Part shown: in pieces, positions 5,436 to 54,761 of the stretch
Layout of the letters: the number at the start of each line of letters is the position of its first letter
Position numbering within the stretch: position 1 is the stretch's first letter
Assembly (NCBI GenBank): GCA_016868035.1
Contig: VGID01000007.1
Span: 5,302 to 69,301, forward strand
Reading direction: 5' to 3'
Source of the DNA: Betaproteobacteria bacterium
GTDB lineage: Bacteria > Pseudomonadota > Gammaproteobacteria > Burkholderiales > SG8-41
DNA: 64,000 nucleotides
Notes under the pieces: model-generated
What the model saw: only the letters and a program-made list of their open reading frames with translations
Databases searched by the model: none
Told to the model about the DNA's origin: nothing
Made by a program: the position numbers and the translations under genes

Positions 5436-7400
5436 TCAGTGCAATTCGTGATAGATCCTCTCCGCCAGCGCGCGGGAGATGCCCTCGACCCCGGCGAGAT
5501 CCTCGATGCTCGCGGCGAGCACCCCCCGCAGCCCCCCGAAGTGGGCGAGCAGGCGCTGCCGGCGCTTCGCACCCACGCCGGAGATGTGCTCGAGGCTCGA
5601 GCTCGCTCGCGCCTTGCCGCGGCGGGCGCGGTGGCCCTGGATGGCGAAGCGGTGCGCTTCGTCGCGGACCTGCTGGACGAGATGAAGCGCCGGGTGGTCC
5701 TTGCCGAGCCGCAAGGGCTCCGCACGTCCGCGCAGCAGCAACTGCTCCATTCCCGGTTTGCGTTCTTCGCCCTTCGCCACGGCTGCCAGCTCCACGTCGG
5801 AGAGGCCGAGCTCGGCGAACACCTCTTCCGCGACGGCAAGCTGGCCGCGCCCGCCGTCGATCAGCACGAGGTCCGGCACCCTGCCCTCCCCCGCGACCAC
5901 CTTGCGGTAGCGCCTCGAAAGCACTTCCCGCAGCGCTGCGTAATCGTCGCCCGGAGTGACGCCGGGAACGGAAGTGACGACTGACGACTGACGACTGACA
6001 GCGGCTGGCCGCTCGTCACCCCGGGCGCGATGAGCGGCGCGTTGCGTCCGTTCGATCGCGCCGAGGTCAGACGGCGATCGATCGTCCGTTCTGACCTGAA
6101 TGTTGTAACGGCGGTAATCGCTCTTCTGCATCGTTGCTTTGTCGTAGACCACGCACGAAGCGACGGTGGCCTCGCCCATAGTATGGCTGATGTCGAAGCA
6201 CTCGATGCGCTGGAGCGGTCCGGGAAGCTCGAGCGAGCGCTGGAGCGCCGTCAGGCGCGCTTCCTGGTTCGCCTGCATCCCGAGCACCTGCTCGGCGCCG
6301 AGCCGCGCGTTCTGCGCGGCCATCTCGAGCCAGGCCTTCTGGACTCCCGCCGGGGACACCGTGATCCGCACCTTCCGCCCGGCGCGCTCGCTGAGCAGCA
6401 TCTCGAGTGCCGACGCATCGGTGCGCGTGCCGATCACGATTCGCGGCGGGGTATCCTGCTCCAGGTAGTGCTGGTGGAGGAACGCCTCGATCACCTGCTC
6501 GGTGCCGCATCCGTCCGCGTTGCGCGGGAAGAAGTTCTTGTCGCCCAGATGATGGCCGCCACGGATCATCACCAGATTCACGCATACCAGTTCCGCCGCG
6601 CGCGCGCACGCGATGACGTCGGCGTCGCCTCCGCCATCGCTGCTCACGAACTGTTTTTCGCGGACCTTGTGCAGCGCCGCGATCTGGTCGCGGATCAGGG
6701 CGGCCTCTTCGTACTCCATGCGCTCCGAAGCCGCGTTCATGCGCGCAACGAGACGGTCGATGACTTCCTCCCCGCGGCCCGAGATGAACAGCTCGGCGCT
6801 CTTGACGTCCTCCGCGTAGGCGCTCTCGCTCACGAGCTTCACGCACGGTCCCGTGCAGCGCCGGATCTGATAAAGCAGGCACGGGCGCGAGCGGTGGCTG
6901 AACACGGTGTCCTCGCAGGTACGGATGCGAAAGACCTTTTGCAGCAGCTGTATGCTCTCGCGCACCGCGCCCGCGTTGGGAAAGGGCCCGAAATAGCGGT
7001 GCCGCTTGTCGCGACTGCCGCGATGGAATCCCAGGCGCGGATACGGGGCGCCACTGAGCATGAGATATGGATACGATTTATCGTCACGAAACAGTATGTT
7101 ATAGCGTGGAGTTAATGTTTTTATTAAGTTATTTTCCAGCAGCAGCGCCTCGGCTTCGGAGCGCGTCACCGTGGTCTCCACGGCGCTCACCTGCGCCAGC
7201 ATCACCCGAATGCGCCGGGCGAGCCCGCTTTGCTTCTGGAAATAGGAGGTCACCCTCTTCTTCAGGTCGAGCGCCTTGCCCACGTAGAGCACTTCGCCCG
7301 CGCTGTTGAGCATGCGGTAGACGCCGGGCAGGTGCGGCAGACCCGAGACGGCCTGGGCGGGATCAAACTCGGGGGCGCCAGCCGTGCGCGCGCTCACCAT
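5436..7400 (-). CDS. uvrC: Excinuclease ABC subunit C, with a 44-aa in-frame insertion
   Basis: GIY-YIG (PGVYRM..LYVGKA), RIECFDISH, DLVLIDGGRGQ, RDEAHRFAI, HhH C-terminus. Confidence 0.97.
   Translation of the reverse strand: MVSARTAGAPEFDPAQAVSGLPHLPGVYRMLNSAGEVLYVGKALDLKKRVTSYFQKQSGLARRIRVMLAQVSAVETTVTRSEAEALLLENNLIKTLTPRYNILFRDDKSYPYLMLSGAPYPRLGFHRGSRDKRHRYFGPFPNAGAVRESIQLLQKVFRIRTCEDTVFSHRSRPCLLYQIRRCTGPCVKLVSESAYAEDVKSAELFISGRGEEVIDRLVARMNAASERMEYEEAALIRDQIAALHKVREKQFVSSDGGGDADVIACARAAELVCVNLVMIRGGHHLGDKNFFPRNADGCGTEQVIEAFLHQHYLEQDTPPRIVIGTRTDASALEMLLSERAGRKVRITVSPAGVQKAWLEMAAQNARLGAEQVLGMQANQEARLTALQRSLELPGPLQRIECFDISHTMGEATVASCVVYDKATMQKSDYRRYNIQVRTDDRSPSDLGAIERTQRAAHRARGDERPAAVSRQSSVVTSVPGVTPGDDYAALREVLSRRYRKVVAGEGRVPDLVLIDGGRGQLAVAEEVFAELGLSDVELAAVAKGEERKPGMEQLLLRGRAEPLRLGKDHPALHLVQQVRDEAHRFAIQGHRARRGKARASSSLEHISGVGAKRRQRLLAHFGGLRGVLAASIEDLAGVEGISRALAERIYHELH
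5964..6095. repeat. 132-bp heptamer-containing palindromic insertion inside uvrC
   Basis: Splits RYNIQ/GVTPGDDY; contains GTGACGA-CTGACGA-CTGACGA-CTGACA; 16-bp identity (GAAGTGACGACTGACG) with 8738-8753. Confidence 0.8.
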
Positions 7401-7467
7401 TCGTGGGGCAGCCGTCCGGCTGGGGTCCGTGCTCGCGCGCGTATGGGGATCTGTGCGACGCGCATCT

Positions 7468-8106
7468 TCAGGCCGGGCATGAGAGCTCTTCGGCAATGGC
7501 GGTGACGACCTTCCGGAACATCTCCGGAGTAAGGCGTCCCGTCTGCGTATTATAGCGGCTGCAGTGATAGCTATCGTAGAGCGTGAGCCCGCGCGCGGGG
7601 ACGTGGCGCGCGCCGTGGCTGAACTTGAAGCGTGTGCCGGGGGTTTTTAGCGCCATCAGCACCGCCCGATGCGCTACCGCTCCCAGCGCGAGGATTACCG
7701 AGCCCTCGGGCAACGCCTCGATTTCATTGCGCAGGTACCCGTTGCAGCGGCGCACCTCGTCGGAGCGCGGCAGGTTCGCGGGAGGCAGGCATTTCACCGC
7801 ATTGGTGATCCGGCATCGGTATAAACGAAGCCCGTCGTCCGCGCTGATCGCTACCGGAGCACTCGAGAACCCGAACCGGTATAGCGTATCGTAGAGCAGA
7901 ATGCCCGCGTGATCCCCGGTGAACGGGCGCCCCGTGCGGTTGGCACCGTGCATGCCTGGAGCGAGCCCGACGACAAGCAGGCGCGCGTGCTCCGGCCCGA
8001 ACGGGGACACCGGCCGGGCGTGATAATCGGGACGCTGCGCGCGCACCCGTTCCAAATGGCGCGCAAGCCGCGCGCACCGGCGGCAGGATTCGGAGAACCT
8101 GGGCAT
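7468..8106 (-). CDS. Uracil-DNA glycosylase, family 5 (UdgB-like)
   Basis: CRRC, GLAPGMHGANRTGRPFTGD, NAVKCLPP, SYHCSRYNTQTG. Confidence 0.92.
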   Translation of the reverse strand: MPRFSESCRRCARLARHLERVRAQRPDYHARPVSPFGPEHARLLVVGLAPGMHGANRTGRPFTGDHAGILLYDTLYRFGFSSAPVAISADDGLRLYRCRITNAVKCLPPANLPRSDEVRRCNGYLRNEIEALPEGSVILALGAVAHRAVLMALKTPGTRFKFSHGARHVPARGLTLYDSYHCSRYNTQTGRLTPEMFRKVVTAIAEELSCPA

Positions 8107-8162
8107 GAGGCGGGACTCTTGGTGTAGAATTACGCGCTTTTCGGGAACGACAGGCAGTTCCA

Positions 8163-8729
8163 ATGGCAAAAGTTCTTGCGACCGAGGTCCGCGCCGGCAA
8201 CCTCATCGAGTGGGAAAAACGCGTCTGGCGCGTGCTCAAATCCTACCATGTCCACGTCGGCGGCCGTGGCGGTGCCTTCATGCAGCTGGAGATGAAGGAC
8301 ATCGAGTCCGGGACCAAGAAGAACGAGCGCATCCGGACCGAGGACAAGCTCGAGCGGGCGTTCGTCGAGCCGCGCGAGATGCAGTATCTCTACCACGATG
8401 GCGACAGCTACGTGTTCATGGACAAGGAGAGCTTCGAGCAGCTCACGCTGTCGGGCGAGTTTCTCGAAGGGCAGACCGGATATCTGATCCCCAACACCGA
8501 CGTGCAGGTCAATTTTCACAACGACCGCCCGATCGGCGTGCAGCTGCCTCCGGCGGTGGTCCTGACGGTCGTGGAAACCGAGCCCAACCTCAAGGGCGCC
8601 ACCGCGACGGGCTCGTTCAAGCCCGCGAAGACCGAGGCCGGGCTTACCGTGCTGGTGCCCCAGTTCGTGACGGGCGGGGTCAAGATCAAGGTCAATACCG
8701 ATACCGGCGAGTATATCGAACGTGCGTAG
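8163..8729 (+). CDS. efp: Elongation factor P (atypical loop HVGGRGG)
   Basis: 188 aa; QYLY.DG..YVFMD.ESFEQ, KPA..E.G..V.VPQFV, NT.TGEYIERA. Confidence 0.9.
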   Translation: MAKVLATEVRAGNLIEWEKRVWRVLKSYHVHVGGRGGAFMQLEMKDIESGTKKNERIRTEDKLERAFVEPREMQYLYHDGDSYVFMDKESFEQLTLSGEFLEGQTGYLIPNTDVQVNFHNDRPIGVQLPPAVVLTVVETEPNLKGATATGSFKPAKTEAGLTVLVPQFVTGGVKIKVNTDTGEYIERA

Positions 8730-8737
8730 CGCCGCAA

Positions 8738-8907
8738 GAAGTGACGACTGACGCCGCTATCGCTGCTGACGACGGACGGCGCAAGGGTGACGACTGACGC
8801 CGCTTCGCTACTGACGAGAGACGAGAAGTCCGCATGGGTCGGTGGAAAACTCCTTACGTTGCAAAGGAGTTTCGGCTGCCGTCAGTTGTCAGTCGTCAGT
8901 TGTCACT
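8738..8907. repeat. Heptamer-arm palindromic element between efp and the CDF gene
   Basis: Left GTGACGA/CTGACGC/CTGACGA units; right CCGTCAG-TTGTCAG-TCGTCAG-TTGTCAC. Confidence 0.8.
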
Positions 8908-9825
8908 CATTGGCCTTTGTATTCCCCGGTGGAGCCGGACAACGGCGCTTTGCGGCGCCGCGGTGGATCCGCGGATCTCGGGCTGCAAGGTAGCGTGCTC
9001 TATGCCGAAGCGCCCGCGCAGCATCTCGCTCGCAGCGGCAAGGATTACCGGCCAGCGCTGCAGATCTTCCAGCTCGACGTGCGCCGAAAGCGCGACGCTG
9101 TCCGGAGTCAGGCTCCACACGTGCAAATCGTGCACGGAAACCACTCCGGGCACGGTCGCGAGCGCCTTCCCGATGGCGCCCAGCTCGACCGAGGGCGGCA
9201 CGCCCTCCATCAGCACGTGCAACGCATCGCGCAGCAGCTTGAGCGTCGTAGCCAGGATCAGGGCGCAGATCACCAGCGAGAGGATGGGGTCGATCGGCAG
9301 CCAGCCGGTGGCATAAATCACGGCTCCCGCGATCAGAACGGCGAACGAGCTCACCAGATCTCCGATGACGTGCAGCAGGGCCGCGCGCGCGTTGAGATCG
9401 GGCTCGCCGCGGCTCAGCAGGTAGGCGCAGACTCCGTTCACCAGCATGCCGATGAGTGCGATCACGATCACTCCGGAGGCCATGATCTCCCGCGGGGCAA
9501 TCAGGCGCTGGACCGCTTCGACCGCCAGCAGGACGATGATGGCCAGCATCAGCAGGCTGTTGAGCAGTGCGCCGATCACCTCCGCGCGCTGCCAGCCGTA
9601 GGTATGTCTGGCGCCGGGAGGGCGCCGCGCGAGCCGCGCCGCGAGCGCCGCTACCGCCAGCGCGCCCGCGTCGGAGAACATGTGGCCCGCATCGCCCAGC
9701 AAGGCCAGCGACCCGGTCCATAAACCGCCGACCAGCTCGACCACCGCGTAGCCGGCCGTCAGGGAGAGCGCGAGCACGAAGGCCGGCCGGCCGCGCGCGA
9801 TGCGATGGCTCGGGTGGGGGCTCAT
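8896..9825 (-). CDS. Cation diffusion facilitator (CzcD/ZitB-like) transporter
   Basis: SLALLGDAGHMFSD, TYGWQRAE, LHVIGD, VHDLHVWSL. Confidence 0.92.
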   Translation of the reverse strand: MSPHPSHRIARGRPAFVLALSLTAGYAVVELVGGLWTGSLALLGDAGHMFSDAGALAVAALAARLARRPPGARHTYGWQRAEVIGALLNSLLMLAIIVLLAVEAVQRLIAPREIMASGVIVIALIGMLVNGVCAYLLSRGEPDLNARAALLHVIGDLVSSFAVLIAGAVIYATGWLPIDPILSLVICALILATTLKLLRDALHVLMEGVPPSVELGAIGKALATVPGVVSVHDLHVWSLTPDSVALSAHVELEDLQRWPVILAAASEMLRGRFGIEHATLQPEIRGSTAAPQSAVVRLHRGIQRPMSDN

Positions 9826-10889
9826 CAGCCCAGCGGCAGCTCGCCGTCGCGCATGCCGATGCCGCTGATGGCGTGCAGCGCGCCGGCGTACTGCGCGTCC
9901 TCGCGCAGCTTGACCATGGTCTCCGCGTGCGAGCGCCCGTGCATGCGCGCTAGACGCGCGAGCCCCACCGCCGGCATCGCGTATTCGAACCCCGAAAACA
10001 GTTCGTCCACGGATTGCGGGCTGTTGCACACGAGCACCATGTCGCAGCCCGCGGCGACCGCCGCCTGCGCACGAGCCACCATCCCGCCGGCGACCGCCGC
10101 ACCCTCCATCGACAGGTCGTCGCTGAACACCACGCCGTCGAAACCGAGGTCGCCGCGCAGCACCTGCTTGAGCCACACGGGGGAGTAGCCCGCCGGGCGG
10201 CTGTCCACCTTCGGATAGATCACGTGTGCCGGCATGATCCCGCCCAGCCCGGACGCGATCAGCCGCCGGAACGGCACCAGGTCGTGCGCTTCGATGTCCG
10301 CATACGGCCGGTCGTCCACCGGCACTTCGTGGTGCGAGTCCGCGCGCACGTAACCGTGCCCCGGGAAATGCTTGCCCACGGCATTCATGCCGGCCTGCCG
10401 GAAGCCCTGCACCAGGGCCCGCGCCAGGTCCGCGATCGCGCGCGGGTCCGAATGCAACGCTCGATCGCCGATGACGCTGCTCGCGCCATGGTCGACGTCG
10501 AGCACCGGCGCAAAGCTCAGGTCCACCCCGTTCGCGCGCAGCTCCGACGCGAGCACGAAACCCACTTCGTGCGCGAGTTGCTTCGCCCGCTGAGGGTTCC
10601 CGTTCCAGGCTCGCCCGAGCTCGCGCATCGGCGGAATCGCGGTGAACTCCTCGCGGAAGCGCTGCACGCGTCCGCCCTCATGGTCGACCGCGATGACGAG
10701 CGGAGGATTACGCAGGCCGTGTATTTCCGCCGTGAGGCGGGAGAGCTGCTCGGTGCCGGTGTAATTGCGCGAGAACAGGATCACTCCGCCGGCGAGCGGG
10801 TGCAGGAGGCGGTGGCGATCCGTCTCGGTCAGGGCAGTGCCCGCGATGTCGAGCATGACCGGGCCGAGCGTCATTCTTTCCGCGTTCAT
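9825..10889 (-). CDS. nagZ: Beta-N-acetylhexosaminidase
   Basis: DHEGGRVQR, KHFPGHG...DSH, FSDDLSM. Confidence 0.96.
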   Translation of the reverse strand: MNAERMTLGPVMLDIAGTALTETDRHRLLHPLAGGVILFSRNYTGTEQLSRLTAEIHGLRNPPLVIAVDHEGGRVQRFREEFTAIPPMRELGRAWNGNPQRAKQLAHEVGFVLASELRANGVDLSFAPVLDVDHGASSVIGDRALHSDPRAIADLARALVQGFRQAGMNAVGKHFPGHGYVRADSHHEVPVDDRPYADIEAHDLVPFRRLIASGLGGIMPAHVIYPKVDSRPAGYSPVWLKQVLRGDLGFDGVVFSDDLSMEGAAVAGGMVARAQAAVAAGCDMVLVCNSPQSVDELFSGFEYAMPAVGLARLARMHGRSHAETMVKLREDAQYAGALHAISGIGMRDGELPLG

Positions 10890-11263
10890 CTCTCGAGCAC
10901 CACGCACGCGCACGCGAGGTTCGCTTCATCGCTGATCGTCAGGTGATGATTCACGATGCCCCTGCTGCTGACGAGCTGCTCCAGATTGGGGTGGAACGCG
11001 AGGCTCGGTCTTCCGGCCGCGTTCTGCACCACGCTGATGCATTGCAAGGTCACAGGATAGCGGAAACCGGTACCCATGGCCTTGGAGAAGGCTTCCTTCG
11101 CGGCGAACCGGTTGGCGAGGAACAGCACGGGGCGGACCGTGCGCAGGTAGGCGGGCCACTCGAGCGGCGTCAGCACGCGCCGCGCGAAGCGCTCGCCGTA
11201 TTTCTCCACCAGACGCGAGATACGCCGCGGCTCCACCACGTCGATGCCGATGCCGTAGATCAT
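10886..11263 (-). CDS. acpS: Holo-[acyl-carrier-protein] synthase
   Basis: [22 protein letters not shown]. Confidence 0.96.
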
Positions 11264-12054
11264 CGGGCCGCGCTGATGAGCGCCTTCATTTCGCGCACCG
11301 CTCCGGCGAGCCCGACGAACACGGCGTGCGCCACGATGGCGTGGCCGATGTTGAGTTCCCGGATCTGCGGAATCGCGGCGACGGGCAGCACATTGTCATA
11401 ATTCAAGCCATGACCGGCGTTCACGTGCAGGCCCTTGCCCGCGGCGTAGTGCGCCGCGCTGCGGATCGTGTCGAGCTCTCTTTTTCGCTCCGCCTCCGTC
11501 TCGGCCTCGGCATAGAGCCCGGTATGCAGCTCGACCACGGGCGCTCCCGCTGCCAGCGCCGCGTCGATCTGGAGCGCATTCGCGTCGATGAACAGCGACA
11601 CGCGCACGCCCGCATCGGCGAGATCCCGGCACGCCCGCTTCACGTGCTCGAGATTGCCCGCCACGTCGAGCCCGCCCTCGGTGGTGAGCTCGGCGCGCTT
11701 CTCCGGAACCAGGCACGCGTCGTGGGGCTTCACCTTGCGCGCGAAGGCGATCATTTCCGGCGTCACCGCCGCCTCCAGGTTCATGCGGGTCTTGAGCAGG
11801 GAGCGCAGTTCGACGACATCGCGATCCTGGATGTGGCGGCGGTCTTCCCTGAGGTGCAGCGTTATGTAGTCCGCGCCGGCGGCCTCCGCGGCGAGCGCCG
11901 CCTCCACCGGGCTCGGGTAGCGCGTGCCGCGCGCCTGCCGCAGGGTCGCGACGTGATCGATGTTGACGCCGAGGAGTTTGCCGGACCCTGCCCCGGCAAA
12001 CTCCTGAGGCAAAACCGCCTGCACAAAGACGCGGGGAATCACCGAAAAGCTCAT
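11260..12054 (-). CDS. pdxJ: Pyridoxine 5'-phosphate synthase
   Basis: [35 protein letters not shown]. Confidence 0.96.
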
Positions 12055-12139
12055 CTCGTCCCTACCCTCATGTACCCTTGCAGGCCTGCGGCAATCGTTA
12101 GGCTCACCTTCATCCAAGATCCGCAGGCGGTTTTGCGTT

Positions 12140-12175
12140 AGCAGCCTGTCGGGCCGCCGACTCCGACAGGCTGCT
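12140..12175. repeat. Minimal family-A element (two inverted ends 10 nt apart)
   Basis: AGCAGCCTGTCGG-GCCGCCGACT-CCGACAGGCTGCT at the recO stop. Confidence 0.7.
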
Positions 12176-12906
12176 CATAGGTCCTGGAGGTCGCGCAGCA
12201 GCTGCCGCGTGTGCAGGACCTGTTTGCCGAGGTAGTGATTGATCAGCATGCGCATCAGCGCCTTGCTCTGCTGCAGCGTGACGGCGCTGGTGAAATCGCC
12301 CGATTGCATGTCGAGCAGCGTCTGGCCGGACAATTCTACCCCGTTTTCCGGAGCATCACCGGTGACGGAGACCGGTCCGCGCTCCATGACGTAGACATAG
12401 CGCCGGGCGCGCGAGATGGGCTCGCCGTCCTCGGCGTCGCGGTCGAACGTGACTGCGTAGCCCAGCTCCCGCAGCAGCCCGATTTCGAAGCGCCGCAGTA
12501 TGGCCGCGTGATCGGGCTCCCGCGCCAGGGCCGCGAGCGTGTCCTGGTAGGTCGCAAACAACTTCTCGTGCGGGTCGTCACGATGCAGCAGCTTGAGCAG
12601 CAATTCGTTGAGGTAGAAGCCGCACGCAAGCGCCCCGCCCTTCAGCGGAGCGTACGGCCCCTGCCACTCGGCCCGGATCAGGGTCCGCAGCTCGGCCTTT
12701 CCCGACCACGATAGCAGCAGCGGCTGGAACGCGAGCAACACCCCGCGCAGCGCCGATTTCGGGCGGCGCGCGCCACGCGCGACCAGCGCGACCCGCCCCA
12801 GGTTCCGCGCGAAGGTTTCCACCACCATGCTGGTCTCGCGGTACGGGTAGCTGTGCAGCACGAAAGCCGGCTGCGAGTCCTGACGGGATCTATCGGCTGA
12901 CGTCAT
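12175..12906 (-). CDS. recO: DNA repair protein RecO
   Basis: AFVLHSYPYRETS, GFYLNELL; position between era and pdxJ. Confidence 0.95.
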   Translation of the reverse strand: MTSADRSRQDSQPAFVLHSYPYRETSMVVETFARNLGRVALVARGARRPKSALRGVLLAFQPLLLSWSGKAELRTLIRAEWQGPYAPLKGGALACGFYLNELLLKLLHRDDPHEKLFATYQDTLAALAREPDHAAILRRFEIGLLRELGYAVTFDRDAEDGEPISRARRYVYVMERGPVSVTGDAPENGVELSGQTLLDMQSGDFTSAVTLQQSKALMRMLINHYLGKQVLHTRQLLRDLQDL

Positions 12907-12926
12907 CGAGCTCTGCGGAAGGACCT

Positions 12927-13838
12927 CTACTCGAAGCCGAGCCGATTCAGCATGGCCTCGCTGTCGGTCCAGCCCCGGCGCACCTTGACCCACACCTCGA
13001 GATAGACCTTGCCTCCGAAAAGTGCCTCCATGTCCTGGCGCGCCTGGCTGGCGATCAGCTTGAGCTTCTCCCCGCCCCTGCCGATCACGATCGGTTTCTG
13101 CGTCCGGCTGGCGACGAGGATGATGGCGTTGATCCGCCGCACGCCCCGGACGAGCTTGAACTGCTCGATCTCGACGGTCGTCGCGTACGGCAGCTCGTCA
13201 CCGAGCAGGCGGAACAGCTTTTCGCGCACCAGCTCGGCCGCGAGAAAACGCTCGCTCATCGTCGTGACCTCGTCCTCGCCGTACAGGGCGGGGCCCCGCG
13301 GCAGCAGCGGCACGAGCGTATCCAGCAGCTCCCCGACCTGGGTGCCGCGGCCGGCTGACAGCGGCACGATCGAGCTGAACTCGCGGCGCGCGGACATTTC
13401 CGCAATGAACGGCAGAAGCAGTCTCTTGTCGCCGATGCGGTCGATCTTGTTGATGGCAAGCACTACCGGGACACCGGCCGGCAGCAGCTTCTCCACTGCA
13501 CGGTCTGCCGCATTGCACACCAGCGCTTCGATCATCCAGACGATGATGTCCACGCCCTCGAGGCTCGCCGCGACGCTGCGATTCATCAGCCGGTTCAGGG
13601 CCGAGCGGTGCACAGTCTGATACCCGGGGGTGTCCACGAACACGATTTGCGCGTCCGCGCGCGTGATGATCCCGGTCACGTGCTGGCGCGTCGTCTGGGG
13701 CTTGCGCGAGGTGATACTGATCTTCTGGCCCACGACGCGGTTGAGCAGCGTGGACTTGCCGACGTTGGGGCGTCCGACGATCGCGACCTGGCCGGCGCGG
13801 AAAGCCGGCGCCCGCTCAGTCACGGTTTGCAAGCTCAT
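12927..13838 (-). CDS. era: GTPase Era
   Basis: GRPNVGKSTL, QTTR, DTPG, NKID, KH domain. Confidence 0.97.
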   Translation of the reverse strand: MSLQTVTERAPAFRAGQVAIVGRPNVGKSTLLNRVVGQKISITSRKPQTTRQHVTGIITRADAQIVFVDTPGYQTVHRSALNRLMNRSVAASLEGVDIIVWMIEALVCNAADRAVEKLLPAGVPVVLAINKIDRIGDKRLLLPFIAEMSARREFSSIVPLSAGRGTQVGELLDTLVPLLPRGPALYGEDEVTTMSERFLAAELVREKLFRLLGDELPYATTVEIEQFKLVRGVRRINAIILVASRTQKPIVIGRGGEKLKLIASQARQDMEALFGGKVYLEVWVKVRRGWTDSEAMLNRLGFE

Positions 13839-14487
13839 AGGCTTGCCGGGCTGCCTCCTGCTCGGCGGTGCGCCGGCTGCTGCCCTCGCCCAGGGTACGG
13901 ATACCGAGCTGGGGAATCACGCACTCGACCTGGAACACCTGCTCATGAGCCTCCCCTCGCGTCGAAACCACCGCGTATTGCGGCAGCGCGATCTTGCGAG
14001 CCTGCAGGTGCTCCTGGAGCGAGGTCTTGGGATCCTTCCCGCTGGTCCGTGGGTCTATGGTATCGATCGCCTCGCCCAGCAGCACCCGGACTGTCCGGCA
14101 TGCGGCGTCGAAGCCTGCATCGAGGAACACGGCGCCGACCACCGCCTCGACCGAGTCGGCGAGGATCGAAGGCCGCTGCGCGCCGCCGCTTCTCACCTCG
14201 CCTTCCCCGAGGCTCAGCTGGTCCCCGAACGCAAACCGCTGCGCGACTGCAGCAAGCGACGGCTGGTTGACCAGGTTGGCACGCAGCCGCGACAGCTCGC
14301 CTTCCGTCAGCTGGGGAAACCTGCGGTAGAGCTCGAGTGCAACAGCGCAGTTCACCACGCTGTCTCCGAGAAACTCGAGGCGCTCGTTGTTTGCGGCGCC
14401 GTGGCTGCGATGCGTCAGCGCCCGGCGCAACAATTCTGGATCGTTGAAGCGGTGGCCGATCCGGAGGGCGAAATCCTCGAGGACCAT
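13816..14487 (-). CDS. rnc: Ribonuclease III
   Basis: ALTHRS..NNERLEFLGD, dsRBD with DPKTSLQE. Confidence 0.97.
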   Translation of the reverse strand: MVLEDFALRIGHRFNDPELLRRALTHRSHGAANNERLEFLGDSVVNCAVALELYRRFPQLTEGELSRLRANLVNQPSLAAVAQRFAFGDQLSLGEGEVRSGGAQRPSILADSVEAVVGAVFLDAGFDAACRTVRVLLGEAIDTIDPRTSGKDPKTSLQEHLQARKIALPQYAVVSTRGEAHEQVFQVECVIPQLGIRTLGEGSSRRTAEQEAARQAYELANRD

Positions 14488-14517
14488 CAGCGCTCGGACA
14501 CTGTGGGCGCGCTTTCG

Positions 14518-14874
14518 CTAGTTCCTGGAGCTCGGATAGAAATCCATGCAAGCGCTCAGATTCCCGACGAGAGGCACACGCACCGAGTATTCCGCGCTGA
14601 TCACGATCCTGTCGCCTTCCTTCGCGATCTTGAGATCACTCGGGCTGACCGACCGGAGGTTCTCGATGACCGCCCGCCGGCTGTATGCCGCCTCGACTTC
14701 CCTGCGCATGCCGGCCCGCAAATCGGGATCCGACGCGACGACCTTGAACTGCTTCTCGATGGCGAAGTTTTCCAGGTACGGCGGTCCGATCTTGAATCCG
14801 AGCAACAGCGCAAAGATCCCGACAATCGCCCACAGGATGAACCCCGAAACGGTCACCCCCGTCTGCCGCTTCAT
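14518..14874 (-). CDS. DUF4845-type membrane protein
   Basis: Pilin-like N-terminus KRQTGVT; usual position between lepB and rnc. Confidence 0.8.
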   Translation of the reverse strand: MKRQTGVTVSGFILWAIVGIFALLLGFKIGPPYLENFAIEKQFKVVASDPDLRAGMRREVEAAYSRRAVIENLRSVSPSDLKIAKEGDRIVISAEYSVRVPLVGNLSACMDFYPSSRN

Positions 14875-14885
14875 GATCGAACGCT

Positions 14886-15689
14886 TCAGTTGATCCACCG
14901 GCCGATCCTCCCGAAATCGTCAAAATTCCACCAGATCAGGAACGCCTTGCCCACGATATTCGCCTCTGGCACGAATCCCCAGTAGCGGCTGTCGCTGCTG
15001 CTGTCCCTGTTGTCGCCCATCAGGAAATAGTGGCCCGGCGGTACCGTGCAGGAAAAGCCCGCTTCATTGTAGGCGCAATTGTCGCGAAATGGAAACCACC
15101 GGACCCCGGGCAGATGCACGCTTGGAATTTCCGGCTGCACCAGTATCGCGTGCCGGTGCTCGCCCAGCGTCTCCCGCAGCCGCCGCGCGGAAACGAAGTT
15201 CAGGCCGGACTCCACGTAGTTGTATTCGCCGTCGGGGGTCGCCTGGATCTCCTTGCCGTTGATCCACAGCCGCTTGTCGCGGTAGGCGATCTGGTCCCCC
15301 GGCAATCCGACCACGCGCTTGATGTAGTCGAGCGAGGGGTTCTCCGGGTAACGAAACACCATGATCTCGCCGCGCCGTGCCTGGCTCACGTCGACGAGCT
15401 TCACGTTGATGATCGGCAGCCGGATGCCGTAGGTGAACTTGTTCACGAGGATGAAGTCGCCCACGAGCAGCGTCGGCAGCATCGAGCCGGAAGGGATCTT
15501 GAACGGCTCGACGAGGAACGAGCGCAGCAGGAACACGACCAAAATCACCGGGAAAAAACTCTTCGGGTATTCGACCCACCACGGCTCGTGGCGGCCCGCC
15601 CCGCGGCGGTGGCGCAGCCAGTAATGGTCGAGCGCCCACACCGCACCGGTCGCGACCAGCAGCAGGAACATGATCATCGCGAAATTCAC
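14886..15689 (-). CDS. lepB: Signal peptidase I
   Basis: EPFKIPSGSM.PTL, YIKRVVGLPGD, GDNRDSSSDSRYWG. Confidence 0.97.
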   Translation of the reverse strand: MNFAMIMFLLLVATGAVWALDHYWLRHRRGAGRHEPWWVEYPKSFFPVILVVFLLRSFLVEPFKIPSGSMLPTLLVGDFILVNKFTYGIRLPIINVKLVDVSQARRGEIMVFRYPENPSLDYIKRVVGLPGDQIAYRDKRLWINGKEIQATPDGEYNYVESGLNFVSARRLRETLGEHRHAILVQPEIPSVHLPGVRWFPFRDNCAYNEAGFSCTVPPGHYFLMGDNRDSSSDSRYWGFVPEANIVGKAFLIWWNFDDFGRIGRWIN

Positions 15690-15704
15690 GCAACACCCGT
15701 GCAC

Positions 15705-15761
15705 GGCAAGCAGTGAGCGGTGAGCGGAAAGAACCGCTTACCGCTTAGCGCTTGCGGCTTG
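15705..15761. repeat. Heptamer-arm palindromic element between lepA and lepB
   Basis: GGCAAGC-AGTGAGC-GGTGAGC-GG loop CCGCTTA-CCGCTTA-GCGCTTG-CGGCTTG. Confidence 0.8.
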
Positions 15762-15768
15762 TCGATGC

Positions 15769-17559: not shown

Positions 17560-17632
17560 GGAAAAGGTCCCCCGCGCGGGCGTTCAGGAGGCCGTCTTGC
17601 GGGTGCCCTTCCTTCGTCTAAAGGCGCGTAGT

Positions 17633-17884
17633 TTATAGGAATTTCTCGAGATGCGCAGTAACGGCGCCGGGGTCGAGAACGAAACGGCACAGCTCGCGTT
17701 CTCCGTGCACAAGCACCGGCACGTGCTCGCCGTAGCGCTCCCCGAGCGCCGGGTCGGAGTCGACGTCGGTTACGACCAGCCCGAAATGAAAGCGGGCCTG
17801 CAGTTGACGCAGGCCCGCGATCATTTCCTCGCAAAGGTGGCAGCGTTCGCGGCTGTACACCGTGAGGGTGACGGGATCAGCCAA
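17633..17884 (-). CDS. Glutaredoxin-like protein (DUF836)
   Basis: YSRERCHLC, VPVL; usual position between degP/mucD and lepA; start uncertain. Confidence 0.8.
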   Translation of the reverse strand: MADPVTLTVYSRERCHLCEEMIAGLRQLQARFHFGLVVTDVDSDPALGERYGEHVPVLVHGERELCRFVLDPGAVTAHLEKFL

Positions 17885-20830: not shown

Positions 20831-20831
20831 C

Positions 20832-24680: not shown

Positions 24681-24993
24681 CCGCAAAGACGCTAAGAGCC
24701 TCTATCACAAAGATCCAAAGAGCATGAAACCGCCGATGAACGCAGACGGACGAAGATAAGATCAAGACCAATATAGACAGGATTAACAGGATGAAAACAG
24801 GATTTACAGGATTATTTGCTCGAGTCTAATCCTGTTAATCTTGTGAAATCCTGTAAATCCTGTCCATTTCTTATCGGCGTTTATCGGCGGCTAATATTTC
24901 TCGATTTTGTTGCCAGCTCTAAGGGATCGCCAGGGGATCAAGAATCAGATCTCGATGCTTTGCGGGCTCTTTGCGCCTCCGCGTCTCCGCGGT
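24680..24993. repeat. Nested palindrome with 8-, 10- and 9-nt periodic arms
   Basis: Outer CCGCAAAG/ACGCTAAG vs CTTTGCGC/CTCCGCGT/CTCCGCGG; middle CGCCGATGAA-type x3 vs TTATCGGCGN x2; inner NACAGGATN x4 vs NAATCCTGT-type x4. Confidence 0.85.
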
Positions 24994-37686: not shown

Positions 37687-37688
37687 GG

Positions 37689-40947: not shown

Positions 40948-40983
40948 GCACACCGAAAACAAGGCGCCGAGGAGGAGCCGTTG

Positions 40984-41808: not shown

Positions 41809-41932
41809 CGCAAGCCGGGACCGGCCCAATCCGCACGCGCGAGGAGAGACGAACATGAGAACTTGAGAGCGATCGGGAAAGACGGCAGCGCAAGATGTGC
41901 AACGATCACCTGTAGCACAGACGCGAGGAGAA

Positions 41933-42883: not shown

Positions 42884-42908
42884 CGGGGCGAGCGGCGAGC
42901 AACCATCG

Positions 42909-42952
42909 CGGCAGGGCGCGCAGCGTCGACGGGTGACGCTCGCGCCCTGCCG
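42909..42952 (+). other. Stem-loop after phnD (mRNA stabiliser or attenuator)
   Basis: CGGCAGGGCGCG.AGCGTC ... GACGCT CGCGCCCTGCCG. Confidence 0.55.
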
Positions 42953-42965
42953 GGAGTAACGGTTT

Positions 42966-43841: not shown

Positions 43842-44758
43842 GCCTGAGCGCGGCTGCTATTGATACCGGGCAACTCTCGGTGCTGCGCGAGCGCCACCCG
43901 CGCGCTTTTTCGCTAACGCCGCGCGAGCGCGCGATCCGGCTCGCGCTGTTGCTCGGACTGCTCGCGTTCGTGCTGTTCTGTCTGTATCGCTTCGACGTCA
44001 CGCCGGCCCGGATCATGAACGGCATGGACCGGTTCGGCAAGATCGCGGGAGCTCTGTTTCCACCGACGGCGAGGGATGTCTTCTGGGACTTGTTCAAGGC
44101 GATGATGGAAAGCGTCGCCATGGCCTTTCTCGGCACGCTGATCGCCGCCATCATCGCCGTGCCGCTCGGGTTTCTCGGCGCGCAAAATGTCCTGCCGATC
44201 CGGCTCCTGCGCTTTCCGATCCGCCGCTCGTTCGACTTCCTGCGCGGGACGGACGCCCTCGTCTGGGCGCTCGTCTACGTGCGCGCCGTCGGGCTGGGTC
44301 CGCTCGCCGGAGTGCTCGCGATCGCGACCACGGACATCGGCATCTTCGCGAAGCTCTTCGCGGAAGCGATCGAGAATGTCGAGCGCAAGCAAGTCGAAGG
44401 CGTCCGCGCAGCCGGCGGCAGCGCGGTGAAGACGATGCGTTTCGGGATCCTCCCCCAGGTGCTTCCGATCATGCTGTCAAACGTGCTCTACATGTTCGAA
44501 TCCAACACCCGCTCCGCGACGATACTCGGGATCGTCGGGGCGGGCGGCATCGGCTTCGCATTGTCGGACCGCATCCGTGCCCACCTTTGGGACGAGGTCG
44601 GATTCATCATCATCATGATCATCGTCGTCGTCGCGCTGATCGATTTTCTCTCGCACATGCTGCGCACCAAGGTGATCAAGGCCGGCACCAACCGCCCCCT
44701 GGTGCTGACCGAGGATGCGCCTACCTTCTCGGACGCCGATCGCGGAAAATCAAGGTAG
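43838..44758 (+). CDS. phnE: Phosphonate ABC transporter permease (second copy)
   Basis: VGLGPLAG, KLFAEAIEN, FESNTRSATILGIVGAGGIG; TTG start overlapping the previous stop. Confidence 0.9.
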   Translation: MSLSAAAIDTGQLSVLRERHPRAFSLTPRERAIRLALLLGLLAFVLFCLYRFDVTPARIMNGMDRFGKIAGALFPPTARDVFWDLFKAMMESVAMAFLGTLIAAIIAVPLGFLGAQNVLPIRLLRFPIRRSFDFLRGTDALVWALVYVRAVGLGPLAGVLAIATTDIGIFAKLFAEAIENVERKQVEGVRAAGGSAVKTMRFGILPQVLPIMLSNVLYMFESNTRSATILGIVGAGGIGFALSDRIRAHLWDEVGFIIIMIIVVVALIDFLSHMLRTKVIKAGTNRPLVLTEDAPTFSDADRGKSR

Positions 44759-44792
44759 ACTAAAGGAATCCTGCGCGGGGAAGGAAACGAAC

Positions 44793-45455
44793 GTGGCCGT
44801 ACCCAGGGAATTCGCGCTGTTCCGCCGCACGAAGGCGCTCGAGAACGAGATCGACGAGTTTCTCGACAAGCTCTCGGAAGGCGCGCTCTCGTTCCGGATC
44901 GCCGTGCAGACCTATCTCGCGCACGGCCGGACCCCGGCGTTCGAGGAAAAGCTCGCCCAGGTCAACGCGCTGGAGAGCAGCGCCGACCACCTGCGGCGCT
45001 CGATCGAGATCAAGCTCTATTCGCAGACGCTCATCCCCGAATCACGCGGGGACGTGCTCGGGCTTCTCGAGACGCTGGACTCGGTCATGAATCTGATGGA
45101 AGGCGCCCTGTGGGCGTTCTCGATCGAAACTCCGGAGATTCCCGAGCCGTTCCGGGCCGACTACAACAACTTGACCGACATGACGGTCCATTGCGTGGAT
45201 GCGCTGACGCAGAGCGCGCGCGCCTTCTTCCGCAATATCGAGGCCGTTGCCGATCACAACCACAAGGTCATGTTCTTCGAGAAGGAAGCCGACAAGATCA
45301 GCACCAAGTTGAAGCGCGCGGTCTTCGAATCGAGCCTCGCCTTGCCGGCCAAGATGCAGCTGCGCTATTTCGTCGAGAAGATCGACGACATTGCCGACCG
45401 CGCCGAGGACGTGGCGGACCGGCTGGCGATCTACACCATCAAGCGCACGGTATGA
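44793..45455 (+). CDS. DUF47 (PhoU-like) phosphate transport regulator
   Basis: LES.AD.LRR, IPESRGD, EKEAD, IADRAEDVADRL; precedes PiT. Confidence 0.88.
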   Translation: MAVPREFALFRRTKALENEIDEFLDKLSEGALSFRIAVQTYLAHGRTPAFEEKLAQVNALESSADHLRRSIEIKLYSQTLIPESRGDVLGLLETLDSVMNLMEGALWAFSIETPEIPEPFRADYNNLTDMTVHCVDALTQSARAFFRNIEAVADHNHKVMFFEKEADKISTKLKRAVFESSLALPAKMQLRYFVEKIDDIADRAEDVADRLAIYTIKRTV

Positions 45456-45470
45456 CCGGGCACCGCGCCC

Positions 45471-46562
45471 ATGGACATATCGGCCTTCATCTTCCTCAGC
45501 AGCGGACTGTTTTTCGGCTGGGCCCTCGGCGCCAATAATCTCGCCAACGTATTCGGCACGGCCGTCGGCACGCGCATGATCCGTTTCACCACGGCCGCGG
45601 CGATCGGCGCCGTATTCGTGGTGCTCGGCGCAGTCATCAGCGGCAGCGGCACTTCCGAGACGGTGGGAAAACTGGGTTCGATCGACGCCCCCGCCGGCGC
45701 CTTCATGGCCGCGCTGGCGGCGGCCGTCGCGGTGTTCATGATGACGCGCGCCGGCTTGCCGGTCTCGACCACCGCGGCGATCGTCGGGGCGGTCGTCGGC
45801 TGGAACCTGTTCAGCGAAACCTGGCCTGATCTCGATTCACTGAGGAGCATCCTGATCGGACTCGTCGTGGGCCCGGTGCTGGCCGCGGGATTCGCGATGG
45901 TTCTCTTCGTCGCCACCCGGGCGGCTCTGGCGGCGGCGAAGGTTCATATGGTGCGCCTCGACATGTACACCCGCCTGGGACTGATCGTGGCCGGCGCCTT
46001 GGGGGCCTACAGCCTGGGAGCGAGCAATGTCGCCAATGTCGTCGGCGTATTCATCGAGACCTCGCCCTTCACGCCGTTCACCATCGATGGCTTTCTGACC
46101 ATCACGCCGGCGCAGCAGCTGGCCGTGCTGGGCGGGCTGTCCATCGCAATCGGCGCCTGCACCTATTCCGGCAAGGTCATGCACACCGTGGGCGCGGGGC
46201 TGTTCACCCTTTCCCCGGTCGCTGCCTGGGTGGTGGTGATGGCGCACTCGATCGTGCTCATCCTGTTCGCATCGAGGAACCTCGAAGCGGTGCTCGCGGG
46301 CCTGGGCCTGCCGACGATCCCGCTGGTGCCGATCTCGAGTACGGAGGCCATCATCGGCGCCGTGATCGGTGTCGCGCTGGTCAAGGAAGCCCACAACATC
46401 CGTTGGTACGTGCTGGCGCGGATCACCGTGGGCTGGGTCATGACCCCGGTGATTGCCGCGGTCATCTGCTTCGTGGGCCTGTTCTTCCTGCAGAACGTGT
46501 TCAACCAGGAAGTCTACCTTCCGGCCGTCGGCGACGCGGTCGAGACGCACCAGCCCGGCTGA
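45471..46562 (+). CDS. Inorganic phosphate transporter, PiT/PHO4 family
   Basis: GANNLAN.FGT, GLPVSTT, GASNVANV, PISST. Confidence 0.9.
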   Translation: MDISAFIFLSSGLFFGWALGANNLANVFGTAVGTRMIRFTTAAAIGAVFVVLGAVISGSGTSETVGKLGSIDAPAGAFMAALAAAVAVFMMTRAGLPVSTTAAIVGAVVGWNLFSETWPDLDSLRSILIGLVVGPVLAAGFAMVLFVATRAALAAAKVHMVRLDMYTRLGLIVAGALGAYSLGASNVANVVGVFIETSPFTPFTIDGFLTITPAQQLAVLGGLSIAIGACTYSGKVMHTVGAGLFTLSPVAAWVVVMAHSIVLILFASRNLEAVLAGLGLPTIPLVPISSTEAIIGAVIGVALVKEAHNIRWYVLARITVGWVMTPVIAAVICFVGLFFLQNVFNQEVYLPAVGDAVETHQPG

Positions 46563-46652
46563 CCTCCGCGCGGCGCAGCACTTGCGACCGCTACCGTCAG
46601 AGGCTGTTCAGTCCGGTCCGGTCCGGTACCACGCGCTCGGCAACGGCGAATG

Positions 46653-46955: not shown

Positions 46956-46971
46956 GAATGCGGGCGGCCGA

Positions 46972-47079
46972 CAGACGAGGCGAGAGAGAGGCTACCCAAC
47001 CTGACACGAGAACCGCAATTCGGTGCCACGCCTCTCTCCTCTCCGCTGTCTCCTCTCCCTTCTCTTTCGTCGCCTTTCC
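46972..47079. repeat. Degenerate heptamer purine/pyrimidine-arm element between eno and ftsB
   Basis: AGACGAGGCGAGAGAGAGG ... CCTCTCT-CCTCTCC-GCTGTCT-CCTCTCC-CTTCTCT-TTCGTCG-CCTTTCC. Confidence 0.6.
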
Positions 47080-47082
47080 GCG

Positions 47083-49246
<2,164 letters not shown>

Positions 49247-49508
49247 CGGCCCCGTCCCCGCCTAGCCGCGGGCCTCGCGCTGCTGCCCGCCCCCGGCGCT
49301 GCGCGCCCGCCGAGTCCGCAGCGCCCCGCTATCAGGAACAGGGGCTGATCCAGTCCCGCCTGGAACCCGCAGAGCTTCATCGGCCCCGTCCCCGCCTAGC
49401 CGCGGGTCTCGCGCTGCGGCCCGCCCCCGGCGCTGCGCGCCCGCCGCGCTCCGGCGGCGACGGAGTCCAGGAGGTTCGTCGCGGGCGCAGGGGCATGATT
49501 CGAGGTCC

Positions 49509-53754
<4,246 letters not shown>

Positions 53755-53829
53755 GATGGACGCTTATGATTTGTGCCGGTCGCCAAAACACGTTATTTTA
53801 CCGGCAAACTTCATTGCTGGCAGTTCTCG

Positions 53830-54651
53830 ATGCGCAAGCGCACCGCGTTCTTTGTTTCCGACCGCACGGGCATCACGGCGGAAATGCTGGGGCACAGCCT
53901 GCTCACGCAATTCGACGACGTGCAGTTCAACGAAGTGACGCTGCCCTTCGTGGATTCCATCGAGAAAGCGCACGAGACGGTCTCGAGGATCAACCAGCAG
54001 GGAGCCGCCGACGGCGTGAGACCGATCGTGATCAGCACGCTTGCGAGGACCGAGATCGCGCAAGTCATCGGGCAGGCGAACGCGCTGTACCTCGACTGCT
54101 TCGAGATCTTCATCTCGCCGCTGGAGCGCGAGCTCGGGTTGCACGCGTCGCACGCCATCGGGCGCTCCCACCGCGTATCCGACTTCGTCGACTATCATCA
54201 CCGGATGGAATCGGTGAACTACACCCTCTCGCACGATGACGGGTCTTCGACGCGCGATCTGTCCGACGCCGACGTCATACTGGTCGGGGTCTCGCGCTGC
54301 GGAAAGACGCCCACCTGCCTGTACCTTGCCATGCAGTACGGCATCCGCGCCGCCAACTATCCATTGATACCGGAAGATTTCAGCAGCATGGGACTCCCGA
54401 GCCACTTGCGGCCGCTGCGAACGAGGCTCTACGGGCTCACCATCCTTCCGCACCGCCTGCAGCAGATCCGCAACGAGCGCCGGCCGGGAAGCAAATATGC
54501 GACTCTGGAGAACTGCGAGCTCGAGGTGCGCGAAGCGGAAGCGCTGATGCGCAGGGAAGGTATCCCCTATCTTGACGCGACCAGCAAATCAATCGAGGAG
54601 CTCGCCACCACCATCCTGCAAGAGGCGAAGCTGCTGCGACGGATCTACTGA
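53830..54651 (+). CDS. ppsR: PEP synthase regulatory kinase/pyrophosphorylase
   Basis: [23 protein letters not shown]; divergent from ppsA. Confidence 0.93.
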
Positions 54652-54658
54652 GCCATTT

Positions 54659-54761
54659 AGTAAGCGGTGAGCAGTGAGCGGTAAACAGCAAGCGATGCGC
54701 GGGAGCTGTCCGAAATAGGCGAGTCCAATGCAACCGCTTACCGCTTACCGCCTACCGCTAA
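54659..54761. repeat. Heptamer-arm palindromic element between ppsR and the TrmH-family gene
   Basis: AGTAAGC-GGTGAGC-AGTGAGC-GGTAAAC-AGCAAGC ... CCGCTTA-CCGCTTA-CCGCCTA-CCGCTAA; same unit as 15705-15761. Confidence 0.85.

Follow-up and report, generated by a model that had tools for sequence, protein, structure and literature searches.

Polarised heptamer hairpins at gene junctions of a betaproteobacterial genome, best read as a gene-less form of four-helix-bundle cassettes

Contig VGID01000007.1 of a Betaproteobacteria bacterium (assembly GCA_016868035.1) carries, in a stretch of 64,000 nucleotides (positions 5,302 to 69,301; hereafter the window), seven short elements built of tandem degenerate units, which an initial annotation had flagged as a dispersed family of periodic palindromes at gene junctions. 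In our view, the most fitting interpretation of these elements is that they are gene-less versions of a cassette type that encloses a four-helix-bundle gene between arrays of tandem heptamers, and we read them in this way because cassettes with the same layout are present in the same genome. With a probability of about 60%, they represent miniature fold-back repeats that are spread through the intergenic DNA of the genome and belong to a selfish superfamily resembling the intervening sequences (IVSs) of rRNA, with arms that evolve by slippage.

The window's own assembly (G000; 3.92 Mb, 66% G+C, 127 contigs, here given C-numbers, the other G-numbers being genomes of the same genus) contains seven genes of PF05635, the 23S-rRNA-IVS/S23p/Avd-like family, which also match TIGR02436. 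All five that have both flanks intact are found between an upstream G-rich array and a downstream complementary C-rich array, with a different unit family in each cassette (Table 1), so that the statement in the initial annotation that similar arms flank four-helix-bundle genes holds in this genome. Of the seven most frequent unit families, four (AACCTTG, AATCCTC, AAAGTCG, and AACGGTG) are represented by a gene-bearing copy. Apart from these five intact cassettes, the tabulation of cargo between arms, which had been suggested as a check, gave no enclosed genes for same-unit inverted pairs 0.5–10 kb apart, these being no commoner than direct pairs and without polarity; at a spacing of 395–449 nt there are four such pairs, of which two are cassettes, the third surrounds the core gene ybaB, and the fourth lacks a clear open reading frame (ORF). 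The cassette interiors match only one another, with 69–81% identity. Six genomes of the genus have no PF05635 match, and none of them is array-rich; the genus tallies include G010, which has neither arrays nor a PF05635 match and on which no conclusion rests.

The cassettes are part of a genome-wide excess of heptamer arrays. A lag-match scan of the 3.92-Mb genome retrieved 341 arrays of period 7, compared with 1, 2, 5, 5, 7, 11, 2, and 10 arrays of periods 4, 5, 6, 8, 9, 10, 11, and 12, respectively, and with none in each of three fifth-order Markov simulations of the genome. A looser cut (score ≥ 10) gave 658 arrays, with 110 canonical units at ~520 loci, and across these units the period, the inverted arms, and the polarity described below are conserved, in agreement with the proposal that the architecture is kept and the unit sequence is not. 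The window is poor in repeats and a degenerate sample of the genome, with only two of its arrays passing this looser cut. For 186 of the 658 arrays an inverted partner was detected within 200 nt, against 37 and 16 with the reverse and complement controls, so the periodicity and inverted-repeat scan that the initial annotation had asked for finds both features well above their controls.

The two arms of a pair have a fixed order. In same-unit inverted pairs less than 150 nt apart the G-rich (purine-rich) arm is 5′ in 44 of 46 cases, with one opposite and one neutral, and among 130 adjacent array pairs of any unit the order (G-rich, C-rich) is found 87 times and the reverse order twice. This polarity is the same in all four gene-orientation classes, which means that each strand reads G-arm and then C-arm. 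On visual inspection, five or six of the seven sites in the window fit it, site 51257 and arguably the CTGACGA-type arms being G/C-neutral. The same order was observed for (GGTTCAA)n loci of many phyla, where, of the 69 loci with both flanks scored, 19 have the inverted arm downstream, none has it upstream, and 50 have no detected inverted arm, in a sample of 80 of at least 122 stretches. A two-fold symmetric polarity of this kind would also result if the arrays were scars of break repair, with both 3′ ends of a double-strand break extended by G-rich repeats, as in telomere healing, and then joined; this accounts as well for the adjacent pairs of unrelated units in (G, C) order (87 vs 2). Nevertheless, such a mechanism predicts neither the conserved cores described below nor the gene-bearing cassettes, and it has no enzyme candidate; the single reverse transcriptase gene of the genome (RVT_1, C9:86291-86983) is on a contig without a PF05635 match. 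We regard this mechanism as extremely improbable.

Several families are recognised by a core between the arms. The (AAGCGGT)n-ATTGGAC..GAAGTTCCC-(GCTCACY)n family has ~26 copies in the genome, and its 29-nt core is identical at five unrelated loci, with arms of ~3 to >17 units. The GTTCAAG family likewise has a shared core, and the core of site 54659, ..GGGAGCTGTCC..GAGTCCAAT, is a diverged copy of the ATTGGAC..GAAGTTCCC core in reverse complement. A unit family is common to neighbouring loci in 62 cases, a modest excess over the 43.7 ± 5.9 obtained by permutation.

Junctions were compared across 54-kb syntenic stretches from six genomes of the genus, and the alignment of orthologous junctions that had been proposed found the elements absent at the same junctions in most of these congeners. 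The gap between efp and the cation-efflux gene is 166 nt here and 17–41 nt, array-free, in the three congeners with this junction (G001, G002, and G013). The lepA and lepB genes abut or overlap (ATGA) in G001, G002, G004, G006, G008, and G012, compared with 64 nt of hairpin here; at this junction G011 and G013 have related, decayed AAGCGGT-type hairpins, evidently orthologous, and G009 has a different, unrelated array. The gap orthologous to site 24680 is 12–60 nt in G001, G002, G004, and G009, and has 134 nt (G013) or 358 nt (G006) of unrelated sequence in two others. Between ftsB and eno there are 127 nt here and 9–97 nt, array-free, in six congeners; the hairpin at 51257 is missing from all five congeners having the pyrG/ppsA junction; and the ppsR/methylase gap is 86 nt here and 5 nt in G001 and G004, with a decayed related hairpin in G013. 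No proto-unit is visible at the empty orthologous junctions. These comparisons support the view that the window elements are lineage-specific additions at otherwise tight junctions. In uvrC, a 20-residue piece encoded by the array is present only in G000 among seven aligned genomes, and an older insert of 18–29 residues is common to five congeners, with G013 lacking any. The filled lepA/lepB site reads ..AAATGA-(insert)-..GCGTGAATTTC, with TGA or (A/G)TGA on both sides of the insert, where the empty sites have the ATGA stop/start overlap; this repeat could be a 3–4-nt duplication or a selective necessity. In the same comparison we observed that ~18 kb (window 28539-46652) separate the large oxidoreductase gene from ftsB, which are adjacent genes in all six congeners.

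The distribution of the arrays is uneven, both within and beyond the genus. Allowing up to two mismatches, (GGTTCAA)3 has 86–365 matches in 11 of 33 genus genomes and 0–21 in the other 22, and the array-rich genomes are no closer to G000 in LepA identity (86–87%) than the array-poor ones (85–89%). None of 400 other genomes sampled evenly from the phylum has an exact (GGTTCAA)3, and (GGTTCAA)4 is present in at least 122 stretches from metagenome-assembled genomes and isolates labelled as many phyla. The loops of (GGTTCAA)n loci are mostly unrelated, with a TTGGAC..GAAGTTCC core recurring in three. We also observed (GGTTCAA)4 in 12 stretches of IMG/VR viral contigs (L194-L205).

An alternative view is that these are ordinary simple sequence repeats (SSRs), formed in place by replication slippage, with 7 nt favoured by the replicative polymerase and inverted pairs produced by template switching, and without any mobility. 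A heptamer excess in many bacteria and the idea of a polymerase footprint are both in print (Mrazek 2007, as told in PMC4692102); moreover, copy number is strongly variable among copies with the same core, there are as many as 110 unit types, and no partner was detected for 472 of the 658 arrays. This view does not account for the empty orthologous junctions without a proto-unit, the 29-nt cores identical at five unrelated loci, the G-then-C polarity across gene orientations and phyla, the have/have-not distribution in one genus, or the association of arrays with four-helix-bundle genes, and as an explanation of the sites we consider it unlikely.

Returning to the window, Tandem Repeats Finder was run on its sequence, and each site was folded on both strands and compared with 200 dinucleotide shuffles (Table 1). 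The reported tandem units are present at all seven flagged coordinates, both by reading and with Tandem Repeats Finder, which confirms that the seven periodic elements exist. The description of units usually followed by an inverted arm holds for the five sites with significant hairpins; 5964 and 46972 are essentially one-sided arrays with folds no better than shuffles. The units abut head to tail at all seven sites, with no spacers between them, and the elements are not CRISPR arrays, as had been stated. No ORF was found inside any of the seven elements, and Rfam at the gathering threshold identified two tRNAs in the window and no family matching the elements.

Table 1. Periodic elements of the window and PF05635 cassettes of the genome. 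Window positions have no contig prefix; (.) denotes strand unassigned; z-scores are given for the two strands
Site	Feature	Coordinates	Strand	Location or arms	Tandem Repeats Finder	Folded region, z
5964	Heptamer array, 60 nt, TGACGAC x3.6, with short stem	5964..6023	(-)	Inside uvrC frame	Period 7: 5975-5999	5960-6030, -1.1 / -1.3
8738	Composite hairpin element	8741..8906	(.)	3′ of efp	Period 7: 8881-8905	8775-8910, -3.2 / -3.2
15705	Heptamer hairpin: GGTGAGC arm, AAAGAA loop, ACCGCTT arm	15705..15757	(.)	Between lepA and lepB	Period 7: 15709-15727, 15733-15753	15698-15765, -5.6 / -4.6
24680	Complete copy of a miniature inverted-repeat transposable element	24695..24920	(.)	Between class-III aminotransferase and large oxidoreductase genes	Period 9: 24777-24814, 24828-24863	24765-24872, -8.6 / -7.9
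46972	Weak element: purine run GACAGACGAGGCGAGAGAGAGGC, then pyrimidine-rich degenerate CCTCTCT array	46970..47079	(.)	Between ftsB and eno	Period 7: 47031-47065 (67% matches only)	46965-47080, -0.9 / -0.7
51257	Heptamer hairpin, GTTCAAG/GTTCCAG family	51257..51343	(.)	Between pyrG and ppsA	Period 7: 51256-51293, 51312-51342	51245-51345, -3.3 / -4.3
54659	Heptamer hairpin: GGTGAGC-type arm, diverged family core, ACCGCTT arm	54659..54761	(.)	Between convergent ppsR and SpoU-type methylase gene	Period 7: 54733-54759	54655-54765, -5.4 / -5.3
	Cassette	C47:15239-15553		GAGGATT arms		
	Cassette	C32:20658-20954		GGTGAAC arms		
	Cassette	C32:16093-16374		GGAAATA arms		
	Cassette	C2:2111-2413		14/28-nt GTGACTG-type unit arms		
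	Cassette	C49:12268-12579		GTTCAAG arms (family of site 51257)		
	Incomplete sixth PF05635 copy, N-terminus lost to the Y1 transposase unit	C7:4933-5142		CGTCAGT arm kept, ending one base before the window		
	Incomplete seventh PF05635 copy	C68		AAGTCGA arm and contig end		

As had been claimed, six of the sites are between core genes named by Pfam and NCBIfam (efp/cation-efflux, lepA/lepB, aminotransferase/oxidoreductase, ftsB/eno, pyrG/ppsA, and ppsR/SpoU-type methylase); the seventh, 5964, is instead an in-frame insert within uvrC (ORF 5436-7496, minus strand), in which the Pfam UvrC domains are split and positions 5964-6023 are translated as RGDERPAAVSRQSSVVTSVP, a peptide placed between the conserved UvrC motifs YRRYNI and GVTPGDDY. 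The claim that some elements supply stop codons can be demonstrated in one of the seven, 54659, where the SpoU-type methylase ORF ends at 54738 with its stop codon inside the array. The element 3′ of efp is composite, having two direct 33-nt GTGACGACTGACGCCGCT-type copies starting at 8741 and 8787, an inner 10-bp hairpin at ~8844-8874, and a C-arm CGTCAGTTGTCAGTCGTCAGTTGTCAC at 8880-8906; an 18-nt composite motif from it occurs seven times, always on the window's contig. The hairpin at 15705 is found in the operon lepA-lepB-(126-residue ORF)-rnc-era (window 12927-17559; rnc and era named by NCBIfam, with rnc at 13816-14487), and is thus a candidate substrate of RNase III on the transcript that encodes RNase III itself. 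In the AAGCGGT family the arms differ systematically, GGTAAGC versus GGTGAGC (e.g. C13:28052-28200 of G000, and window 15705-15757 and 54659-54761), such that one strand is able to pair throughout with the help of G·U wobble and the opposite strand has A·C mismatches; the wobble-paired strand is the plus strand at both 15705 and 54659, sense for ppsR and antisense for lepA/lepB. Elsewhere in the window, the gene located between eno and pyrG has at its upstream end a 134-nt unit repeated twice (49183-49446, 93% matches), and G006 has a similar duplication.

Site 24680 is a bona fide non-autonomous, TA-duplicating miniature inverted-repeat transposable element (MITE), and the statement that the elements show no evident target duplication is therefore incorrect for this site, where a TA duplication is evident once the family is aligned. 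The copy is bounded by terminal inverted repeats (TIRs) at 24695-24710 and 24905-24920, with TA at the flanks; within it are subterminal repeats of GATGAACGCA type and, at the centre (24776-24864), a hairpin made of 9–10-nt ACAGGATTN units. The family has at least 30 complete copies of 133–230 nt in the genome, with ends (A)GAGCC(C/G)GTA(T/A)CA flanked by TA in the family alignment, and the TIR pattern is found twice in the window against 0.03 expected. Its centre is swappable, and consists of nothing, of the ACAGGATTN hairpin (22 loci), or, in no fewer than 13 of 30 copies, of a heptamer hairpin. Subterminal motifs of the MITE enclose 20 of 523 heptamer loci, compared with 0.3% of random positions. 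A search of this fragmented assembly for an autonomous partner gave one DDE_3 fragment, on a 2.2-kb contig, without TIR pattern or matching end. TA-duplicating MITEs of bacteria include the Correia/NEMIS elements of Neisseria and the IS630/Tc1-type MITEs. Site 24680, and only this site, shares with these the TIRs, the TA flanks, the size (133–230 nt), the dozens of copies, the absence of an ORF, and the presence/absence among relatives, and differs from them in having a swappable periodic hairpin module as its centre and no cognate transposase found.

Regarding their position in the genome, 452 of the 658 arrays are fully intergenic on our crude gene map. Among the 560 arrays assigned to a region, divergent regions hold 46, although they represent 20% of intergenic bases, and are thus under-represented, whereas convergent regions, with 16% of the bases, hold 126 and are over-represented. 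This distribution downstream of genes and away from promoters, together with the stable stems and the decayed element kept at two junctions of G013, is what would be expected of host-selected structures such as two-way terminators, stabilisers of mRNA 3′ ends, or separators of cistrons in operons, rather than selfish DNA. The same junctions are, however, empty in most congeners, some arrays are in frame inside proteins, no T-run follows the window stems at 8738, 15705, 51257, and 54659, no Rfam family was matched, and purifying selection on neutral insertions yields the same positional bias; we find a regulatory origin distinctly unlikely for the set. In situ SSR formation and host-selected RNA structure may each account for part of the arrays.

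Arrays are read in frame inside protein genes in 39 of 658 cases. Taking those well inside long ORFs, we counted 14 host genes, seven of which belong to DNA repair or replication: a duplicated UvrA (with seven arrays), UvrC, UvrD, Mfd, DnaE, the error-prone DnaE2, and RecJ (host coordinates C1:176323-182328, C9:71235-74762, C20:26332-28611, C21:21102-24590, C28:1180-4752, C44:25888-27927, and window 5436-7496). The remaining hosts are MurE, Lnt, GlcF, HemW, RfbB, TilS, and one unknown protein, and these are raw counts with no length correction. An identical 80-nt end similar to that of an insertion sequence (IS), GCGAATCTCAGCGTTCGCAGAACAC..., directly adjoins heptamer arrays at C100:126, C64:99, C64:16997, and C74:85, which suggests ISs landing in arrays. 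A further 67-nt sequence, found at C68:60-130 and at ~30 other loci on many contigs with 95–100% identity, adjoins the divergent four-helix-bundle gene on C68, and is another high-copy repeat or IS end.

High-copy extragenic palindromes, often in inverted doublets and clustered at 3′ gene ends, are also typical of repetitive extragenic palindromic (REP) elements and their REPIN doublets, which are mobilised by Y1 HUH transposases (REP-associated tyrosine transposases, RAYTs). The genome has three Y1_Tnp genes with their own flanking repeats of 4–10 copies, and one of these, a RAYT-like gene just upstream of the window (C7:4037-4792), lies between CGTCAGTCGTCAC arrays, to the family of which sites 5964 and 8738 also belong. 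Even so, the repeats directly beside this gene are of a different type (GGGTCTGTCCCC), in seven other genomes its homologues have GGGGACAGACC / GGGTCAGAGTCAC repeats at their flanks and no heptamer arrays, and the array-rich G008, G026, and G030 have no homologue of it at E ≤ 1e-10. In the region C7:3700-5300, a Y1 unit with GGGTCTGTCCCC-type repeats interrupted a four-helix-bundle gene, the remnant of which (Table 1) retains a CGTCAGTCGTCAC arm, and the CGTCAGTCGTCAC arrays beside the Y1 gene belong to the interrupted gene. Furthermore, under the rule of one RAYT per REPIN, three genes would be too few for more than 20 unit families, and the arms are tandem heptamers of many families and not a single REP of 20–40 nt. 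On these grounds RAYT was rejected as the mobiliser, and a REP/REPIN origin appears very improbable. No described REP or short tandemly repeated repetitive (STRR) family with a known mobiliser accounts for the elements: heptamer repeats and IVSs have been described and are not known to have a mobiliser, and the RAYT candidate failed.

The closest known counterparts of the cassettes are the IVSs of rRNA. The 23S rRNA IVS of Coxiella burnetii has an S23p four-helix-bundle ORF and a 28-bp terminal stem, and was termed a selfish element of unknown origin (Warrier et al. 2016, PMC4990558); it carries two to three tandem GACAGAT heptamers, in a number that varies among strains, the first of which is the point of its excision by RNase III (PMC4990558). 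Avd, the accessory protein of diversity-generating retroelements, belongs to PF05635 as well (PMC10053308). The rRNA IVSs (that of Coxiella, and also those of the Leptospira, Brucella, and Salmonella types) share with our cassettes an ORF of the same Pfam family between stem-forming ends and the adjoining tandem heptamers, a combination of stem and heptamer arm that is found here in four heptamer sites of the window (z from -3.2 to -5.6) and in the five tandem-armed intact cassettes. In contrast to the IVSs, the cassettes and gene-less forms are placed between protein genes, in a protein gene, or in a MITE, with hundreds of loci and many unit families; all seven window sites are between or inside protein genes, and none is in helix 25 or 45 of 23S rRNA. 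The window elements thus resemble gene-less IVS stems between protein genes and, by location, are not members of the rRNA-IVS class.

Heptameric SSRs have been known to be over-represented in many bacteria since 2007, with polymerase slippage as the proposed cause (Mrazek 2007, as told in Rehm 2015, PMC4692102). The GGGAATC repeats of Xanthomonas, which include inverted pairs, and the GGGGA(C/T)T repeats of Nostoc differ between close species (PMC4692102). They are similar to the arrays described here in the excess of period 7 alone, the intergenic location, the occurrence of some inverted pairs, and the differences in length and sequence between close relatives. They are published as SSRs or G-quadruplex formers, whereas most units here have only GG runs, and a fixed polarity, cores, and a link to four-helix-bundle genes are not described for them in the available portions of these reports. 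Likewise, the TAACTGA repeats of Beggiatoaceae, cyanobacteria, and Bacteroidetes (MacGregor 2015, PMC4679880) are identical intergenic heptamers in distant phyla, with a patchy distribution and no evident transfer mechanism, and differ in being nearly all direct (169 direct, 1 inverted) and immediately 5′ of start codons, while here a quarter or more are in inverted pairs and there are many unit types. The Rickettsia palindromic elements are palindromic repeats inserted in frame in protein-coding genes, a trait shared with the array in uvrC; they have a different sequence and architecture, and in-frame cases are a minority here. The heptamer excess and the IVSs are each already in print, and their link was not found in print: in a search that left most subscription journals outside, we found no paper connecting four-helix-bundle or IVS genes to genome-wide heptamer hairpins, nor one quoting GGTTCAA tandem arrays.

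Several observations, in addition to the partnerless arrays, weigh against the reading of the sites as fold-back repeats of a selfish superfamily. Most loops within one family are unrelated, and, given this and the partnerless arrays, in situ slippage may explain many arrays. If the unit families arose from each other, the polarity counts are not independent observations, and the gene map was made with a home-made caller based on third-codon-position G+C, which over-extends ORF starts. For the heptamer elements, we found neither a transposase nor a target duplication nor excision. Window 5800-25000 was compared with contigs from four DNA metagenome runs, three from lakes, which represent the same strain, and one from soil, which represents a ~95%-identical strain; at the level of contigs they show no joints at the elements and no polymorphism; the uvrC array is unchanged in the soil strain, site 15705 is bridged only by contigs of the same strain (X6 and X9), and site 8738 has no long bridging piece among those listed. 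The AAGCGGT family (15705 and 54659) and that of 46972 have no cassette in the assembly. Derivation of the gene-less hairpins by internal deletion of cassettes found no support, as the cassette interiors match no gene-less loop, and the direction could be the reverse, with four-helix-bundle genes landing in pre-existing hairpins. In addition, the number of PF05635 genes does not follow the abundance of GGTTCAA: G027, G032, G035, and G038 have 7–8 PF05635 genes and no GGTTCAA arrays, the only unit counted in this comparison. Finally, the cleavage by RNase III included in the mechanism below is pure analogy.

In the mechanism that we favour, most elements have G-rich tandem heptamers, a short core or loop, and a complementary C-rich array. 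Whole hairpins, or the genes inside them, would be copied to new sites that tolerate them, such as the 3′ ends of genes, junctions within operons, flexible linkers in proteins like UvrC, and the middle of other palindromes. The arms would afterwards lengthen or shorten by slipped-strand mispairing, and long stems on transcripts may be cut by RNase III, by analogy with the rRNA IVSs of other bacteria. Site 24680 is a TA-duplicating MITE centred on the same kind of periodic hairpin. The earlier suggestion of empty or non-autonomous forms of a mobile or RNA-processing system stands in part, in that cargo-bearing forms exist and 24680 is a MITE; mobility and RNA processing are only inferred, and a descent of the gene-less hairpins from cassettes is putative. 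A much broader proposal, speculative and on balance improbable although worth stating, is that the bacterial heptanucleotide excess as a whole (STRR, the Xanthomonas and Nostoc repeats, and others) consists of the remains of a single pan-bacterial class of selfish, IVS-like cassettes, whose Avd-like four-helix-bundle protein would help to copy the hairpin-ended unit, the G-first polarity and the 7-nt step being signatures of this copying and not of slippage or selection.

Heptamer repeats have been noted in bacteria for decades without an origin or function, and the IVSs and S23p/Avd-like proteins are equally unexplained. Here, one genome presents both, with hundreds of polarised heptamer hairpins and five intact gene-enclosing cassettes, and the split between haves and have-nots within a single genus makes a comparative search for the responsible factor feasible. 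In practical terms, assemblies break at these elements, ORF calls are lengthened or cut short by them, and DNA-repair proteins gain peptide inserts. If heptamer repeats and IVSs are indeed linked, this would explain, in a way open to testing, where a whole class of bacterial repeats comes from, and would predict RNase III processing sites inside core operons.

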